From positions 1,656 through 65,655 of the forward strand of contig JBHPGO010000001.1 in assembly GCA_042570465.1 (NCBI GenBank): 64,000 bases of DNA, in the 5' to 3' direction. Shown here piece after piece: positions 20,451 to 45,790 of the stretch. The stretch comes from Patescibacteria group bacterium (GTDB lineage Bacteria; Patescibacteriota; Microgenomatia; PFEM01; JBHPGO01). A program made the translations under genes and the position numbers. How positions within the stretch are numbered: position 1 is the stretch's first letter; each line of letters begins with the position of its first letter. The notes beneath the pieces are model-generated. The model saw nothing but the letters and a program-made list of their open reading frames with translations, was not told where the DNA came from and made no database searches.

Positions 20451-20583
20451 TTTGAGCGGGATGCGGGATTCGGAGGGTCCGAAACTTCTTGTTTAGTTTG
20501 AATCTTCCCAGGGAGATCTCCAATTGTCGTCTTTAGTTTGAAAGTTAGGTGGAGTTTGGGTTCGAATCTATGCATCCCTTTTG
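20442..20583 (-). pseudogene. partial copy of tRNA-Gly(TCC) 3' end (T-loop TTCG + GACCCTCC + GAATCCCGCATCCCGCTCA) with a 130-bp unit
   Basis: gcatcgcttttgagcgggatgcgggattcggagggtccgaaac repeats the tRNA 3' terminus at 20572–20600. Confidence 0.6.
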
Positions 20584-20654: not shown

Positions 20655-20726
20655 TGATTTTTTAGATAGTTTTCCAGTCTTCTTTTTAAATATCCTCTGC
20701 CAAACCCAGTTTTTAATTGTTTTTCT

Positions 20727-20889
20727 CGTCTTCACCTTGCCCGACAAAAGGTTCGAGACTTCGACCGCATTTAGTCGGGTCCGCCAAATTGCGTTCTGCA
20801 GTACAGAACCTTTTGGCGTGAGAAGGGTGATGTTGAGCCACCCCGCCGAAAAGCTTCGCATTTTTGCGGGCAGGTCAACTAATCCTGCT
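20727..20889 (-). pseudogene. 5'-portion copy of tRNA-Gly(TCC) interrupted by a ~34-nt insert in the D-loop and a ~85-nt insert in the anticodon loop
   Basis: The sequence matches the tRNA 5' half (including the ctgattttt flank) once the insertions are removed. Confidence 0.55.
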
Positions 20890-24184: not shown

Positions 24185-24336
24185 TAAGGTTATTGTTTTT
24201 ACACTAAAAGATATTTTCCATGGGAAATAGTTTATTCAGAGACATTTAATACACTAAATAAGGCGAGAGGGCGAGAAAGATATTTAAAATCATTTGCTGG
24301 CAGGAAGTGGATGAAGAAATTTGTTTTTAAAAACTA
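24185..24336 (+). pseudogene. degenerate 3' remnant of a GIY-YIG gene copy
   Basis: The sequence acactaaaagata..ccatgggaaatagtttattcag...gtttttaaaaactag aligns to the 3' ends of the two intact copies. Confidence 0.5.
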
Positions 24337-24417
24337 GCCGAGGTGGCGAAATTGGCCCGCCTCGACTCGCGGAGATAAATATTCGAGTCGACGCGAGGCG
24401 GGCAGACGCGAAACAAA
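24337..24417 (+). repeat. tRNA-Leu(TAA) 5' fragment (gccgaggtggcgaaattggc) + 46-nt GC-rich palindrome + cagacgcgaa, copy 1
   Basis: Identical to tRNA positions 1–20 and 21–30 at 24989, with the insertion ccgcctcgactcgcggagataaatattcgagtcgacgcgaggcggg between them. Confidence 0.65.
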
Positions 24418-24663
24418 ATGTATTTTGTTTATCTGCTTAAAAGCAAGAAACATAATAAAAGCTATGTAGGAATGACTAAAGATTTGGAAATAAGACTTAG
24501 GCGACATAATCAAGGGTATTATAATTACACTAAAAGATACTTGCCATGGGAAATAGTTTATTCAGAAAAAATTGATACATTGGAGAATGCGACCAAGCGT
24601 GAGAAGTATCTTAAATCAGCAGCTGGTCGGAAATGGTTGAAAAGAGTTGTTTTTAAAAACTAG
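24418..24663 (+). CDS. GIY-YIG nuclease family protein (short YhbQ/Slx1-N-like, 81 aa)
   Basis: YFVYLLKS..YVGMT.DLE.RL..HN motif; the stop codon abuts the tRNA 5'-fragment repeat. Confidence 0.65.
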   Translation: MYFVYLLKSKKHNKSYVGMTKDLEIRLRRHNQGYYNYTKRYLPWEIVYSEKIDTLENATKREKYLKSAAGRKWLKRVVFKN

Positions 24664-24743
24664 CCGAGGTGGCGAAATTGGCCCGCCTCGACTCGCGGAG
24701 ATAAATATTCGAGTCGACGCGAGGCGGGCAGACGCGAAACAAA
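24663..24743 (+). repeat. tRNA-Leu(TAA) 5' fragment + GC palindrome, copy 2 (326-bp tandem unit)
   Basis: Exact repeat of 24337–24417. Confidence 0.65.
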
Positions 24744-24989
24744 ATGTATTTTGTTTATCTGCTTAAAAGCAAGAAACATAATAAAAGCTATGTAGGAATG
24801 ACTAAAGATTTGGAAATAAGACTTAGGCGACATAATCAAGGGTATTATAATTACACTAAAAGATACTTGCCATGGGAAATAGTTTATTCAGAAAAAATTG
24901 ATACATTGGAGAATGCGACCAAGCGTGAGAAGTATCTTAAATCAGCAGCTGGTCGGAAATGGTTGAAAAGAGTTGTTTTTAAAAACTAG
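24744..24989 (+). CDS. GIY-YIG nuclease family protein, identical second copy
   Basis: Identical 81-aa translation to 24418..24663. Confidence 0.65.
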   Translation: MYFVYLLKSKKHNKSYVGMTKDLEIRLRRHNQGYYNYTKRYLPWEIVYSEKIDTLENATKREKYLKSAAGRKWLKRVVFKN

Positions 24990-25072
24990 CCGAGGTGGCG
25001 AAATTGGCAGACGCGAAGGACTTAAAATCCTTTGGTGGCAACACCGTGTGGGTTCGACTCCCTCCCTCGGCA
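24989..25072 (+). tRNA. tRNA-Leu(TAA), long variable arm
   Basis: Acceptor GCCGAGG/CCTCGGC, D-arm GCGAAATTGGCAGACGC, anticodon stem AAGGA/TCCTT with loop CTTAAAA, T-loop TTCGACT, discriminator A. Confidence 0.75.
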
Positions 25073-25236
25073 CTTCTGCTAAGCAGAATATCTCATGGGA
25101 GGTAGAGTCGAACCCATTGAGAACCAAGCTACGAATAAGTAAGGTGCTTTGGAAATAAATTTAACAAGGTTGATTGAAATAAAACGGAATGGACACTCCG
25201 ACTCCCTGCCTGCCGGCAGGCAGGCCTCCCTCGGCA
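25073..25236 (+). repeat. 164-bp tandem unit 1 ending in a copy of the tRNA-Leu 3' end split by a 20-nt perfect palindrome (gcctgccggcaggcaggcct)
   Basis: The unit ends ...cgactccct[gcctgccggcaggcaggcct]ccctcggca. The same palindrome occurs at 1160–1179. Confidence 0.65.
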
Positions 25237-25400
25237 CTTCTGCTAAGCAGAATATCTCATGGGAGGTAGAGTCGAACCCATTGAGAACCAAGCTACGAAT
25301 AAGTAAGGTGCTTTGGAAATAAATTTAACAAGGTTGATTGAAATAAAACGGAATGGACACTCCGACTCCCTGCCTGCCGGCAGGCAGGCCTCCCTCGGCA
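25237..25400 (+). repeat. 164-bp tandem unit 2
   Basis: Near-exact repeat of 25073–25236. Confidence 0.65.
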
Positions 25401-39440: not shown

Positions 39441-39526
39441 GCCAATCTGCTTCTTATTCTAACATAAATAAGTCTGCTATAGATTTATTAAAAAGTTGCG
39501 TCTCGGTCGGTTGAGGTGCCCGTTCT

Positions 39527-39640
39527 GGCTGCGGGGCAGGGATTCCCCGAAAAACTCTTACTTCGCGCCGGAGGCTTCCAGCCTCGCGCTCACGAAGGGC
39601 GAATATCGGGGCAAGCGATGAGGGTCCAGGCCTCCATATT
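39527..39640 (-). pseudogene. tRNA-Gln 3'-end fragment with GC-rich insert (second copy)
   Basis: Minus-strand reading GACCCTCATCGC...TTTTTCGGGGAATCCCTGCCCCGCAGCC. Confidence 0.5.
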
Positions 39641-39766
39641 TTGTTCGTAGCTTTCTATTCGTTTCTTAATACGGATTCATCTTGTTTGAAAGTCAAGTGG
39701 AGTTGCAGGTTCAAGTCCCCACAAGCTAGACACAAAAACACCCCTTTCGGGGCGTTTTGGTCTAGC

Positions 39767-39892: not shown

Positions 39893-40035
39893 CTCATTTG
39901 GAGCGAGGGACGGGGGTCGGAGGGTCCGAAACAATTTATTTCCTCGAAACCCCTGAACTTAATCCCCCTATCTCTAACTTAATTTGAAAGGTACTCTCAA
40001 CGCGGGTTCTCGCCCAGTCCCACGCAAAATCTTAC
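39893..40035 (-). repeat. ~143-bp tandem unit containing a tRNA-Gly(GCC) 3'-end copy preceded by GGACCCTCC
   Basis: ggagcgagggacgggggtcggagggtccgaaac... is identical to 40036–40182. Confidence 0.65.
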
Positions 40036-40182
40036 AAATATGGAGCGAGGGACGGGGGTCGGAGGGTCCGAAACAATTTATTTCCTCGAAACCCCTGAAC
40101 TTAATCCCCCTATCTCTAACTTAATTTGAAAGGTACTCTCAACGCGGGTTCTCGCCCAGTCCCACGCAAAATCTTACAAATA
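40036..40182 (-). repeat. second tandem unit (tRNA-Gly(GCC) 3'-end copy)
   Basis: Exact repeat; it abuts the genuine tRNA. Confidence 0.65.
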
Positions 40183-40258: not shown

Positions 40259-40500
40259 GTATTAGTAATGTTTTGGCTTATTTGTCTAACGTAGGTTCTC
40301 CTCTTAGAACAGATTGATTGATTTTTTCATGTAATTCTCTCGAATCCCGGACAGTTAAGGTTGCTTGCCTTCTTGCCATTTCAGGAGACATTCCTGAGGT
40401 CGTAAATTGATTTGTCAAGTGGTCTCTGAATTTTCGATCTACTCCACAAATAATAATAGATGTTTCCATTTTTAATCCTCCCTTCTTTCAATATTCACTG

Positions 40501-40573
40501 TGCCAGGGAGCAGAATCGAACTGCTATCTCATGTTTTTCAGACACGCGCCGTGACCACCTTGGCTACCCTGGC
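40501..40573 (-). tRNA. tRNA-Phe(GAA)
   Basis: Acceptor GCCAGGG/CCCTGGC, anticodon stem CGTGT/ACATG with loop CTGAAAA, T-arm AGCAG-TTCGATT-CTGCT. Confidence 0.75.
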
Positions 40574-40820
40574 AAACATTTATTAATCTCCTCATTTCGA
40601 CATTACCTTTGCCCGTGTTTTTAAAATACCACTCTCTCTTAAATGCCTCACTTTTATTAGTATACTCTTCGAAATATATTAGTTTTAAGGGTTTTCGATA
40701 CTTTGTTGATTTGTTTTTGCCTTGGTTATGTTCTTCTAGTCTGTTTTCTAAATTATTGGTTGCTCCGATATATAGATTACTGTCTTTTTTACTTTTCAAA
40801 ACATAGACATAAAATTTCAT
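40524..40820 (-). CDS. GIY-YIG nuclease family protein (YhbQ-like); the nominal reading frame runs into the tRNA-Phe gene
   Basis: MKFYVYVLKSKKDSNLYIGATNNLENRLEEHNQGK; the upstream in-frame extension to 40910 is a tRNA-Phe 5' fragment and not coding. Confidence 0.55.
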   Translation of the reverse strand: MKFYVYVLKSKKDSNLYIGATNNLENRLEEHNQGKNKSTKYRKPLKLIYFEEYTNKSEAFKREWYFKNTGKGNVEMRRLINVCQGSQGGHGACLKNMR

Positions 40821-40827
40821 AAAATTT

Positions 40828-40895
40828 GTGACCACCCCCGAGGGGGCCCTTTCAGGGTCCTGATAGGACGCCTTCGGCGCTTGGCTACCCTGGCA
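40828..40895 (-). repeat. tRNA-Phe 5' fragment (GCCAGGGTAGCCAAG...GTGGTCAC) split by a ~45-nt GC-rich hairpin insert in the D-loop
   Basis: Compared with 40546–40573; the insert is cgccgaaggcgtcctatcaggaccctgaaagggccccctcgggg. Confidence 0.55.
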
Positions 40896-41019
40896 GTTAG
40901 TCTTGGGCAATAAGATTTTAACAAAAAATGACTAAGATAACAATAATCTTGACCTAAGTATAGAATTATTCACTTGACAGAAGATAGTCGGGCTGATAAA
41001 TTTAATTAAGGAAAAAACT

Positions 41020-41829
41020 ATGGCTGATGATGAAAAAAAACTGAGCGAGGAAGAAGAAAAAAAAGAGGAAGAAAGCAAGGAAGAAAAGCCTGAAGAAGTG
41101 GAGTCTATGGAAGAAACTAAGGAAAAAGAAAAGCCCGTTGAAGAAGTTACTGAAAAAAAGTCAGAGGAATCTGATTCTGAATCTAAAACAGGGCAAAGCT
41201 TGACTGAAGAAGGAGAGGCAAAAGAAAGCTCTTCTGATGAGACTGAAGAGACGGCTGAATATTCAAGCGAATTAATTGTCGACGAAGCTTCATCTGGGAA
41301 AAAGAGCTTCTTTAGTAAAAAACTTCTTTTAATTGTTTTACTCGTGGCAGCCACTGTTTCTTTGATCACCGGAGGTATATTAGTCTACCGAAAAGCAATC
41401 AATAAGCAAGAAAACAAGGCCTCTGTGACAGAGATTGAAAGTAGTCCGACCCCACTTCCAGCCACGGCTGACGCGGCCTCACCTTCGGCCAAATTAAAGA
41501 GAGACGAGTTAAAAGTTCAAGTGCTTAATGGCTCCGGAGTTCCAGGTGCCGCCGGGGTTGGTCAGGAATTTCTTGAAAGCCTTGGTTACCAAGAAGTAGA
41601 AACAGGTAATGCTGATAATTATGACTTTGAAGATTCAGTTGTTTCGCTAAACGAAGAAAACAAGGAATTATTTGCTGAAATTAAAAAAGATTTATCTGAA
41701 AAGTATTCGGTGGGTGAAAAAGCAGAAGTTCTGGAAGAATCCAGTGAATATGATCTTGTCATCACCCTAGGTCAAGAGCTGGAAGAGGCTGAGACTGAAG
41801 AGGAAGAAGCAGAGGCAGAAGAAGAATAA
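41020..41829 (+). CDS. acidic membrane-anchored LytR_C (LytR C-terminal) domain protein
   Basis: TM LLLIVLLVAATVSLITGGILV; LKVQVLNGSGVPGAAGVGQEFLESLGY matches LytR_C. Confidence 0.5.
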   Translation: MADDEKKLSEEEEKKEEESKEEKPEEVESMEETKEKEKPVEEVTEKKSEESDSESKTGQSLTEEGEAKESSSDETEETAEYSSELIVDEASSGKKSFFSKKLLLIVLLVAATVSLITGGILVYRKAINKQENKASVTEIESSPTPLPATADAASPSAKLKRDELKVQVLNGSGVPGAAGVGQEFLESLGYQEVETGNADNYDFEDSVVSLNEENKELFAEIKKDLSEKYSVGEKAEVLEESSEYDLVITLGQELEEAETEEEEAEAEEE

Positions 41830-45188: not shown

Positions 45189-45454
45189 CTCAGCATCTTC
45201 TCCTTTTTATAATTTAATTTATTTATAAATAAAATTAAAATAGCCTGTTTGTTCAGTATTATAGCAATTTTCTACAAAATCTACAAGTTTTTGGTCTTTA
45301 GTTGATTAACAAATAAGCAATGAAAAAGTTGTATTTATTCAAGTCTTTTGTTCACTTCTGAGGGTTTCTCGTTTCTCCACAAGTAAATTCTGTTTTGCAG
45401 AAGTGCCCTAGGGGAGAGTCGTCACGCACCAGAGTCCGGCGAAGCCGGACACGA

Positions 45455-45560
45455 AGCATGACACCCTATACCGTGTTTGCTGAAGGCGAATTCTGGTATA
45501 CGGGCGAACCCACATGGATTTGCATCCACACAGTCCTGAACTCCGCCAAAGGCGGACAGG
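45455..45560 (-). pseudogene. internal copy of tRNA-Leu(CAG) (anticodon arm to T-loop TTCG) with a 20-nt hairpin insert in the anticodon stem
   Basis: Minus-strand reading CACG[cctgtccgcctttggcggag]TTCAGGACTGTGTGGATGCAAATCCATGTGGGTTCG, then diverges. Confidence 0.55.
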
Positions 45561-45584
45561 CGTGCGCTTGTACCTCCAAATAAG

Positions 45585-45668: not shown

Positions 45669-45790
45669 ATATTTTGGTCTGTCTGCCCGCCTCGCGTCGA
45701 TGAGCGACACGAGTCGAGGCGGGCCCGCCTCGCGTCGACTCGAATATTTATTTCCGCGAGTCGAGGCGGGCCAATTCCAGCACCAGGGGC
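45669..45790 (-). repeat. tRNA-Leu D-arm fragment (ggaattggc) followed by two tandem ~46-nt GC-rich palindromes (H1 family), then cagac, immediately 5' of tRNA-Leu(CAG)
   Basis: cccgcctcgactcgcggaaataaatattcgagtcgacgcgaggcggg is near-identical to the insert at 24356 and 24682. Confidence 0.6.

Follow-up and report, generated by a model that had tools for sequence, protein, structure and literature searches.

The phenylalanine transfer RNA (tRNA-Phe) gene described here lies in a 64,000-nucleotide (nt) stretch of DNA from a Patescibacteria group bacterium (contig JBHPGO010000001.1, positions 1,656 to 65,655), referred to below as the window. Directly 5' of this gene is a small open reading frame (ORF) of the GIY-YIG nuclease family, and upstream of the ORF lies a displaced and interrupted copy of the 5' part of the tRNA itself, termed the relic below. 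Read along the minus strand from 40894 to 40500, the locus consists of tRNA nt 1-15, a GC-rich insert, tRNA nt 16-23, seven further nucleotides, the GIY-YIG ORF and the intact tRNA-Phe (Table 1). The seven nucleotides (AAATTTT) separate the second relic segment, GTGGTCAC, from the ATG at 40820. The first relic segment, GCCAGGGTAGCCAAG, has two matches in the window at up to two mismatches, compared with 0.09 expected, and none of 100 shuffles reached two. The 128-amino-acid (aa) ORF with a TTG start that the ORF track lists results from in-frame reading through the relic fragment and the insert into the GIY-YIG ORF. The original prediction had described it in this way, as a tRNA-Phe 5' fragment followed by a GIY-YIG gene that reads into tRNA-Phe, and reading of the sequence agrees. 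The insert of 45 nt also stands (44 nt, or 45 nt if G40835 is included), and the ORF, put at about 99 aa, is corrected to 98 aa. Four mini-hairpins make up the insert, namely CGCC-GAA-GGCG, TCCT-ATC-AGGA, CCCT-GAA-AGGG and CCCCC-TC-GGGGG. The RNA fold energy of the fragment plus insert is unremarkable for its composition (z = -0.86), so dyad symmetry and comparative conservation, and not folding energy, carry the case for hairpins at this locus.

Neither a promoter-like nor a terminator-like site accompanies the GIY-YIG gene itself, and its reading frame lacks a stop codon of its own. Its first stop is a TAG at 40526-40524, 50 nt inside the tRNA-Phe gene, which contains the last 47 nt of sense codons in addition to the TAG; the 17 extra C-terminal residues of the ORF are translated tRNA sequence, and the nuclease domain is encoded by approximately 40578-40820. 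The promoter-like site upstream of the relic is probably the original tRNA-Phe promoter, which would now drive fragment, ORF and tRNA together. Similarly, direct reading of three related loci (L017, L022 and L027; L numbers denote surveyed loci) revealed a TATAAT box that precedes fragment nt 1 by about 9-18 nt. The 650 nt scanned at the Phe locus contained no terminator-like site. The whole unit is about 320 bp long, and the GIY-YIG gene is the sole ORF within it.

The Phe ORF matches the Pfam GIY-YIG model (PF01541) over residues 2-71 (E=1.1e-19), and the catalytic-type residues Y6, Y17, G19, R27, H31, N32 and E63 are invariant across the 22 relatives of the family alignment. In that sequence-based alignment, no invariant Asn is present after E63. 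In phmmer searches of PDB sequences, the UPF0213 structures 1zg2 (4e-7) and 1ywl (9e-7) were matched. The AlphaFold2 model (predicted local distance difference test score, 96.7) contains three strands and three helices; its best Foldseek match is the UPF0213 protein BH0048 (1zg2, E=5e-5), and Slx1 nuclease-domain chains align with template-modelling (TM) scores of 0.70-0.72, a root-mean-square deviation of 1.5-2.3 Å and 27-29% identity. The I-TevI catalytic domain reached a TM score of only 0.5 (E=0.26) against the model. The sequence and fold matches uphold the earlier description of the protein as YhbQ-like, and it is a minimal, stand-alone Slx1/UPF0213 (YhbQ-like) GIY-YIG domain of about 80 aa. 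This domain fills the entire protein, leaving no room for a C-terminal DNA-binding region of the Seg or I-TevI type. Protein identity is 62-68% among the tRNA-Phe modules of the window, L001 and L022, a module being the relic with its hairpins and ORF. Between related modules, the proportion of non-synonymous differences is 0.19-0.33 and that of synonymous differences 0.66-0.94, which is saturated, and the ratio of the corresponding rates is about 0.2 in the four computable pairs; thus, the protein is maintained by purifying selection. The family profile matches approximately 32,000 cluster representatives. Many of these (e.g. P0148-P0153, many of 100-130 aa) carry N-terminal extensions of 20-55 aa or two tandem GIY-YIG domains, probably because gene calling has read through a relic and hairpin or an array, as in the 128-aa ORF.

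Relatives were collected solely by the peptide motif HNxGKNK(S) from GTDB species-representative genomes and JGI metagenomes, which yielded 49 loci, about 45 of them distinct; the context of the closest homologue was also taken in. The original prediction had tied these GIY-YIG genes to tRNA genes. The survey drew on genomes and metagenomes at large instead of this single genome, and in it the link to tRNA genes held: a tRNA gene adjoins about 30 of the roughly 45 distinct relatives, mostly within 100 nt and in a few cases at 150-250 nt, and always on the same strand. In at least 24 relatives, a partial copy of the adjoining tRNA lies on the far side of the ORF, and in nearly all of these it is split by a hairpin, usually in the D-loop.

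At least 20 loci form a 5' class, in which a colinear copy of tRNA nt 1 to X (X = 14 to 55) lies upstream of the ATG, as at the Phe locus. The copy is broken after nt 6-23 by GC-rich (rarely AT-rich) hairpins and resumes at the exact next nucleotide; in L019, the break falls after nt 36. In nearly all other modules, the hairpins stay in the D-arm region, even where the relic continues into the anticodon or T arm (nt 36-55). On its left side, the duplication starts precisely at tRNA nt 1; the lone exception is L019, which shares seven leader nucleotides. The right edge X clusters at the end of the D-arm (about 20-29), in the anticodon region (32-43) and at the T-loop (55). Gaps between copy and ATG are 0-16 nt, and the ORF ends 0-14 nt from tRNA nt 1 or overlaps the tRNA. 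In 13 of these loci there is no ORF stop ahead of the tRNA; an own stop is absent, or is completed only by tRNA nucleotides, in L001, L008, L016, L019, L022-L026, L028, L034, L039 and L040. Related tRNA-Phe modules vary in both insert position and fragment length. In a mirror class (L014/L048, L038, L052 and L054), the intact tRNA precedes the ORF by 2-54 nt, and a 3' fragment interrupted by hairpins lies downstream of the ORF.

The host tRNAs are Phe, Leu (four isoacceptors), Ser, Tyr, Arg (four), Gln, Asn, Ala, Pro and probably Lys. The carriers are Patescibacteria/Saccharibacteria, Bacteroidota, Flavobacteriia (with the isolate Psychroflexus longus CAK8W, whose copy at tRNA-Arg(TCG) is L016), Flavipsychrobacter, Gammaproteobacteria, Syntrophaceae, Dehalococcoidia and viral contigs. 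Tandem arrays also occur in L018, L027, L037 and L048. No rule emerged for the direction in which arrays age: the distal copy is decayed in the Leu array of the window and in L018, and the tRNA-proximal copy in L037. In L027, 13-nt inverted arms enclose the ORF, and to either side of these arms lies a copy of tRNA-Ala nt 1-11, an 11-nt direct duplication; this locus bridges the tRNA-nested kind and a hairpin-borne kind described below. Some modules of the Saccharibacteria type depart in detail. L012 (1335-1497) has at least five copies of GGAGACTTTAGTCGCC-like units between relic and ORF, and the spacers of L029 and L036 hold AT-rich AACGT...ACGTT hairpins. Two tRNAs flank the ORF in L029, L036 and L049, where no relic is detectable.

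The original prediction had confined the tie to tRNA genes, and here the survey went beyond it: the association covers stable-RNA genes and hairpins, not tRNA genes alone. L043 (1182-1452) is a 271-nt insertion at the tip of helix 6 of 16S ribosomal RNA (rRNA), closed by a perfect 16-bp stem, and L051 (~935-1210) and L011 (~1400-1790) are insertions at hairpin tips in 23S rRNA genes. The rRNA inserts are closed by perfect 15-16-bp stems with similar inner ends (CACTAAATCA / CACTCAAATC), and the ORF stop lies within the 3' arm. L021 (1429-1690) is located directly 5' of the ribonuclease P (RNase P) RNA gene and abuts its 5' end. In a further clade, the ORF occupies the loop of long terminator-like hairpins with conserved arms, away from RNA genes, and its stop codon is part of the 3' arm. 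The arms are CCCCGTTAGAAAYC/GRTTTCTAACGGGG in L031, L041 and L044-L047, and CCCGGTAGTGAAAATTCGAG in L009, L032 and L035. A search for ORF-less hairpins with arms CCCCGTTAGAARYC returned one IMG/VR match (L090, 2106-2143); its arms are of the first kind (the CCCCGTTAGAAAYC/GRTTTCTAACGGGG clade), a T-run follows, and it looks like an ordinary terminator in a viral contig. The phage relatives (Ralstonia RP13 and Rhizobium phages) sit between protein genes, not by tRNAs.

The type of hairpin tracks both the protein clade and the host tRNA. Hairpins of the Phe/Asn clade are pairs of 11-nt units, CCCYNNNRGGG, and homologous 2 x 11-nt units occur in the relics of the tRNA-Phe/Asn modules L001, L022, L024, L025 and L026, between nt 15 and 16 in three of the five. 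The Y-R positions of these units co-vary, with all cells paired and 10 showing double changes, a result reached by none of 500 shuffles, in a test that is partly circular because the units had been picked as palindromes. The Leu clade (GKNKTTKPY) carries a 20-nt perfect palindrome, CCTGCCTGCCGGCAGGCAGG, and the Gln clade CCCGTCTCG... hairpins. CCTGCCTGCCGGCAGGCAGG is found in the window at 1160-1179 and in 3' relics at 25205-25224 and 25369-25388, and is common to the window, Bacteroidota and other metagenomic tRNA modules (L039, L040, L042, L050, L018, L054 and L086). It was also found in 35 IMG/VR stretches of very varied GC content (L055-L089), mostly with no tRNA or GIY-YIG gene in the fetched flanks; some of the viral copies are bounded by direct repeats of 7-14 nt. 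In L079 (and L056), it is located at the variable-loop position within a tRNA-Met. In L050 and at the Leu locus of the window, one palindrome is nested in the centre of another, and older or decayed modules, such as those at tRNA-Leu(CAG) and tRNA-Gly(TCC), hold more hairpins.

Relics beside intact ORFs are mostly 100% identical to their own tRNA, despite saturated synonymous sites between the ORFs. For example, the relics of the window and L001 each match their own tRNA-Phe at all three positions where the two tRNAs differ. The ORF-less relic at tRNA-Leu(CAG), by comparison, has about 7 mismatches in 29 nt (counted by hand from the sequence). Because relics match their own tRNA beside diverged ORFs and the ORF-less relic has diverged, relics are recreated or homogenised as long as the ORF is alive.

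The Phe module is not alone in the window. In place of the two independent loci of the original prediction, at least four modules were found among nine tRNAs: 5' modules lie at four of the nine, in intact, tandem, truncated or ORF-less states, and six of the nine have a partial copy of themselves no more than 700 nt away. The tRNA-Leu(TAA) locus shares the architecture of the Phe locus in unrelated sequence, just as predicted, and comprises two identical 326-bp units plus a degraded copy. Each unit reads [tRNA-Leu nt 1-20][47-nt nested GC palindrome][nt 21-29][ACAAA][81-aa GIY-YIG ORF], and the G of each TAG stop (24663 and 24989) doubles as nt 1 of the following copy or tRNA. The Phe and Leu(TAA) proteins are 40% identical. 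At tRNA-Gly(TCC), the relic (nt 1-47) is split by GC hairpins at two places, the D-loop and the anticodon loop; the GIY-YIG ORF is reduced to its last ~25 codons (…EKQLKTGFGRGYLKRRLENYLKNQ), and the intact tRNA (20654-20583) follows. The module at tRNA-Leu(CAG) has no ORF and runs from a diverged 21-nt relic through two tandem palindromes, relic nt 21-29 and AAAATAT to the tRNA (45668-45584); the first palindrome is identical to that of Leu(TAA) at 46 of 47 positions.

Table 1. Coordinates of the tRNA-Phe module and of related features elsewhere in the window.
Feature	Position	Strand	Basis or remark
Intact tRNA-Phe(GAA)	40500..40573	-	ARAGORN; Rfam tRNA, 62.2 bits; 5' end abuts ORF
Relic, displaced copy of tRNA-Phe nt 1-15 (GCCAGGGTAGCCAAG)	40880..40894	-	Exact 15-mer repeat
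GC-rich insert splitting relic in D-loop	40836..40879	-	Four tandem mini-hairpins or dyad-symmetric 11-12-mers
Relic continuation, tRNA-Phe nt 16-23 (GTGGTCAC)	40828..40835	-	Colinear with tRNA; resumes at exact next nt past insert
GIY-YIG ORF, 98 codons + stop (MKFYVYVLKS...)	40524..40820	-	Pfam PF01541
Promoter-like site (TTGTTA, 17 nt, TG-n-TAAAAT)	40915..40943	-	~20 nt upstream of relic; consensus scan, 9/12 matches, extended -10
Two identical 326-bp units at tRNA-Leu(TAA)	24337..24988	+	Sequence reading and repeat scan
Degraded, 5'-truncated third GIY-YIG copy, distal end of Leu(TAA) array	24186..24334	+	C-terminal 49 aa, 69% identity, tblastn; repeat family D1
Intact tRNA-Leu(TAA) ending array	24989..25073	+	ARAGORN, Rfam
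Decayed module at tRNA-Gly(TCC)	20655..20888	-	Sequence; weak tblastn match 20681-20731; relic matches
ORF-less module at tRNA-Leu(CAG)	45669..45790	-	Sequence; palindrome scan
Units of 3' repeat family	25074-25388 (2 x 164 nt); 39896-40179 (2 x 142 nt); 39524-39764; 20454-20582; 1040-1180; 45420-45583		

A second, non-coding repeat family, with units of about 115-215 nt, lies directly 3' of the tRNAs Leu-TAA, Gly-GCC, Gln, Gly-TCC and Leu-CAG, with one orphan copy. It includes two tandem pairs. Most units hold a segment antisense to a tRNA T-arm (GGATTCGAACCC...CTCCAC...TTTCAAAC), and they mostly end in GGACCCTC followed by a tRNA copy from the T-loop to the 3' end (nt 56-76); the 20-nt palindrome splits some of these relics. 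Two further ORFs near the Phe module, a 63-aa ORF at 40278-40469 (minus strand) between tRNA-Phe and tRNA-Gly(GCC) and a 269-aa Glu/Lys-rich low-complexity ORF at 41020-41829 (plus strand), divergent and upstream of the module, matched no NCBIfam model.

Several familiar explanations for such a locus were rejected. An assembly artefact was set aside because the architecture recurs in NCBI, ENA and JGI assemblies and in an isolate genome. A group I intron in the tRNA, or another known RNA, does not fit, as Rfam at the gathering threshold gives only nine uninterrupted tRNAs in the window. Nor is the ORF an intron-encoded endonuclease, since it lies upstream of an intact tRNA and not within an interrupted one. 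Finally, an integrase-type attachment-site duplication is at odds with the absence of a recombinase, the duplication of the 5' part rather than the 3' end, and a unit of about 320 bp rather than a kb-sized island.

The Phe locus is interpreted, with moderate confidence, as one copy of a widespread family of selfish, homing-type mini-elements in which an Slx1/UPF0213-type GIY-YIG gene resides inside a tRNA transcription unit. Paralogous copies within a small genome, tandem identical units, remnants, patchy spread, strict co-orientation with stable-RNA genes, tight abutment to these and the lack of own expression signals together form a pattern of selfish DNA. The original prediction had suggested free-standing homing endonucleases. 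Hallmarks of the homing type are indeed seen in the sporadic spread, the multiple and decaying copies and the position in or next to conserved genes; the missing DNA-binding domain and the poor superposition on I-TevI do not agree with that suggestion. In the proposed mechanism, the nuclease would cut a tRNA gene that is not yet occupied, either in or close to the D-loop or at the 5' boundary, and recombinational repair would copy in a unit of the form [hairpins][tRNA nt p+1..X][ORF][replacement tRNA nt 1..p]. The replacement 5' part would rebuild a working tRNA, so that the host could tolerate the insertion, and the native 5' part would stay upstream as the relic. Within the relic, the hairpins would destroy both the target and the long direct repeat, and the 3' end of the ORF would replace the leader ahead of the intact tRNA copy; by these two changes, occupied alleles would be protected. 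The ORF would be transcribed from the tRNA promoter, with the RNase P cut at tRNA +1 setting the 3' end of the messenger RNA (mRNA). Such a cut would often leave a non-stop message and hence a low protein level, and may throttle the nuclease via transfer-messenger RNA (tmRNA).

A number of points weigh against this scheme. Every step from cleavage onward is a proposal made from sequence, nuclease activity, cleavage site and transfer included, and the scans, which were protein-based only, recovered no empty allele of the same tRNA locus from a close relative. The intact tRNA copy is identical to the naive target, so immunity of an occupied allele would require the leader to be part of the recognition site, and a long site is unlikely to be read by a domain of 80 aa that has no DNA-binding module. 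The model assigns no role to nt p+1..X, the tRNA-derived segment between hairpin and ORF, and the acquisition of the correct 5' part for a new tRNA species is left unexplained by it. The apparent persistence of the tRNA-Phe module through the long divergence seen in its proteins (62-68% identity) would also fit a retained host function.

Such a function, in which the gene would be a retained housekeeping or repair factor co-transcribed with tRNAs and, for example, resolve R-loops or branched DNA at stable-RNA genes, is improbable. The purifying selection on the ORF, the presence of the Phe module across diverged Patescibacteria and the kinship with Slx1, a genome-maintenance nuclease, are all consistent with it. 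In one version, fragment and hairpin would be a regulatory or stabilising 5' untranslated region, and stable 5' or 3' hairpins do stabilise mRNAs. Paralogous copies at several tRNAs of one small genome, together with tandem units and truncated or ORF-less remnants, however, look like proliferating and decaying selfish DNA; the ORFs often lack stop codons, and the family is patchy across phyla and present in phage contigs and inside rRNA genes. It is highly improbable that the arrangement is a coincidence, with tRNA fragments and hairpins being scars of other tRNA-targeting elements or hairpin repeats and the GIY-YIG gene merely sharing a permissive spot. The separate non-coding repeat family of about 120 nt at tRNA 3' ends in the window does duplicate tRNA nt 56-76, and GC palindromes do occur away from GIY-YIG genes, but the same ordered, tight arrangement is found in at least 20 independent assemblies from several phyla, including cultured Psychroflexus longus, and the adjoining tRNAs are all on the ORF strand.

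Two other readings change how the nuclease would find its site. In one, the main rival, which is possible but doubtful, a structure-specific, Slx1-type enzyme would act in a transposon-like manner, nicking the tops or bases of extruded or single-stranded stem-loops. The cut in one strand would fall at the foot of the acceptor stem (nt 0/1), and that in the opposite strand at nt X, in a loop or at a stem junction. With the ORF joined in, gap filling would duplicate nt 1..X as a long target-site duplication of variable length. The GC palindromes would then be small non-autonomous partners put into hairpin loops, surviving only in the dispensable relic. The nearest fold is that of Slx1, a branched-DNA nuclease, and the sharp left edge at nt 1 and the clustering of X at the D-arm end, anticodon region and T-loop are consistent with cuts of this kind, although selection alone could sharpen the nt-1 boundary. 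L027 resembles a classical element, with its inverted arms and direct duplication. Relatives sit at hairpin tips in 16S and 23S rRNA genes and in terminator-like hairpins, and rRNA insertions in the Candidate Phyla Radiation (CPR) are likewise located at tops or bases of stem-loops (PMC11270868). Palindromes nested in palindromes and the greater number of hairpins in older or decayed modules also point this way, as do the CCTGCCTGCCGGCAGGCAGG copies in 35 IMG/VR stretches, some between 7-14-nt direct repeats; most viral-contig copies, however, have no GIY-YIG gene in the fetched flanks. In addition, duplex DNA does not allow D-stems of 3-4 bp to extrude, and the DNA would thus need to be single-stranded; strand transfer by GIY-YIG enzymes is not known, so a ligase or repair pathway would have to take part.

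In the other, very improbable reading, the transcript or DNA of the relic would be a guide whose tRNA arms pair with the tRNA gene and whose hairpin recruits the nuclease, making targeting programmable. Relics match their own tRNA exactly where the ORF is intact and decay once it is lost, the hairpin sits midway in tRNA-derived sequence and co-varies in type with the protein clade, and closely related proteins serve different tRNAs without any DNA-binding domain. The duplication is more simply explained as a by-product of insertion, however, and the identity by gene conversion with a tRNA 300 bp away. Mismatched relics lie beside intact ORFs in L016, L017 and L026, the arms in L022 are very short (7+7 nt), the rRNA-borne and hairpin-borne relatives have no such relic, and an 80-aa guided nuclease has, to our knowledge, no precedent. 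Taken more broadly, it is conceivable but unlikely that nuclease and clade-specific palindromes represent a new class of mobile element, one that recognises nucleic-acid structure or a guide instead of a long DNA sequence and inserts at the tops or bases of stable-RNA stem-loops. The tRNA-bounded duplications may arise in this way, with the palindromes as non-autonomous partners, and in its strongest version the split fragment may be a programming guide.

If the selfish, homing-type reading is correct, the tRNA genes of many bacteria, especially those with the small genomes of Patescibacteria, host unrecognised selfish nuclease genes that borrow the tRNA promoter, and probably RNase P processing, and let the host survive by restoring its tRNA. 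Such genes would then leave diagnostic scars, namely split tRNA fragments and GC palindromes. A context would be provided for part of the UPF0213/YhbQ family, whose approximately 32,000 cluster representatives have no assigned biology, and 'GIY-YIG family proteins' with N-terminal extensions or tandem fusions, as well as ORFs running into tRNAs, would be explained. The tRNA-borne copies would also be linked with the unexplained GIY-YIG insertions in CPR rRNA genes. Finally, enzyme engineers would have an interest in a nuclease of 80 aa that locates stem-loops or palindromes or takes a copied fragment as its guide.

The tRNA-nested, hairpin-split GIY-YIG architecture was not found described in the full-text searchable literature, the coverage of which leaves out most subscription journals. 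The family is apparently undescribed, with ingredients that are known separately: SegB, the GIY-YIG insertions in CPR rRNA genes, the mobile ORF (mORF) hybrids and the Slx1-like branch. In the repetitive extragenic palindrome (REP) system with its associated tyrosine transposases (RAYTs), short GC-rich palindromes, which are also present as many solo copies, flank a nuclease-type gene and apparently evolve together with it. This is an analogy only; RAYTs are HUH/Y1 and not GIY-YIG enzymes, and REPs are not found in tRNA fragments and involve no tRNA duplication.

Members of the Slx1/UPF0213 branch (YhbQ, BH0048, EF2693) are, like the present protein, single domains of about 80-100 aa with no auxiliary domain, and a C-terminal Asn marks the UvrC/I-TevI lineage of the GIY-YIG superfamily (PMC1564403). 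A link of this branch to tRNA genes, duplicated fragments or palindromes was not found in the searchable literature. Eukaryotic Slx1 needs Slx4 and acts in genome maintenance, and Escherichia coli yhbQ is an ordinary single-copy chromosomal gene. The tRNA gene cluster of phage T4 encodes SegB, a free-standing homing endonuclease of the GIY-YIG type that is reported to cut the tRNA gene region in a related genome and to favour its own inheritance (PMC2330249). Both are GIY-YIG genes among or at tRNA genes, SegB being a phage gene and the present family chromosomal. The protein modelled here fits I-TevI-type domains poorly. SegB has the full length of a Seg protein, DNA-binding region included, and its gene lies between tRNA genes and is not known to have a duplicated, hairpin-split tRNA fragment beside it.

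GIY-YIG ORFs have also been reported in non-intron insertions of CPR rRNA genes, at sites on the tops or bases of stem-loops, in a study that makes no mention of tRNA (Tsurumaki et al., 2024, PMC11270868). Those insertions are neither group I nor group II introns and occur in the same bacterial radiation; in the present scans, L043, L051 and L011 were placed in the subfamily of the window protein. The position with respect to stem-loops is similar at the Phe locus, where the ORF directly adjoins the acceptor-stem base and the relic carries its hairpins in the D-loop. The rRNA insertions need no duplicated gene part, whereas the tRNA version adds a relic and hairpins and abuts the mature 5' or 3' end.

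By analogy, the closest documented logic is that of the mORFs of fungal mitochondria (Allomyces atp6; Glomus atp6/atp9/cox2/nad3), in which a free-standing LAGLIDADG or GIY-YIG endonuclease ORF inserts in an essential gene together with a replacement gene end and leaves the native gene end as a displaced duplicate beyond the ORF (PMC3630166). These mORFs can lack a stop of their own or be in phase with the host gene, and they are co-transcribed with it (PMC3630166). Similarly, the present loci have a functional gene on one side and a displaced duplicate on the other, in the 5' class of at least 20 loci and in the 3' class of four. The host of an mORF is a protein gene, whereas here it is a tRNA gene (or, in relatives, an rRNA or RNase P RNA gene) in bacterial chromosomes across phyla, and it is usually the 5' end that is duplicated. 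In most modules, the relic is identical to the functional copy except for its hairpins, in contrast to mORF duplicates, which have diverged by synonymous changes, and the enzyme here is a bare Slx1-type domain of 80 aa.

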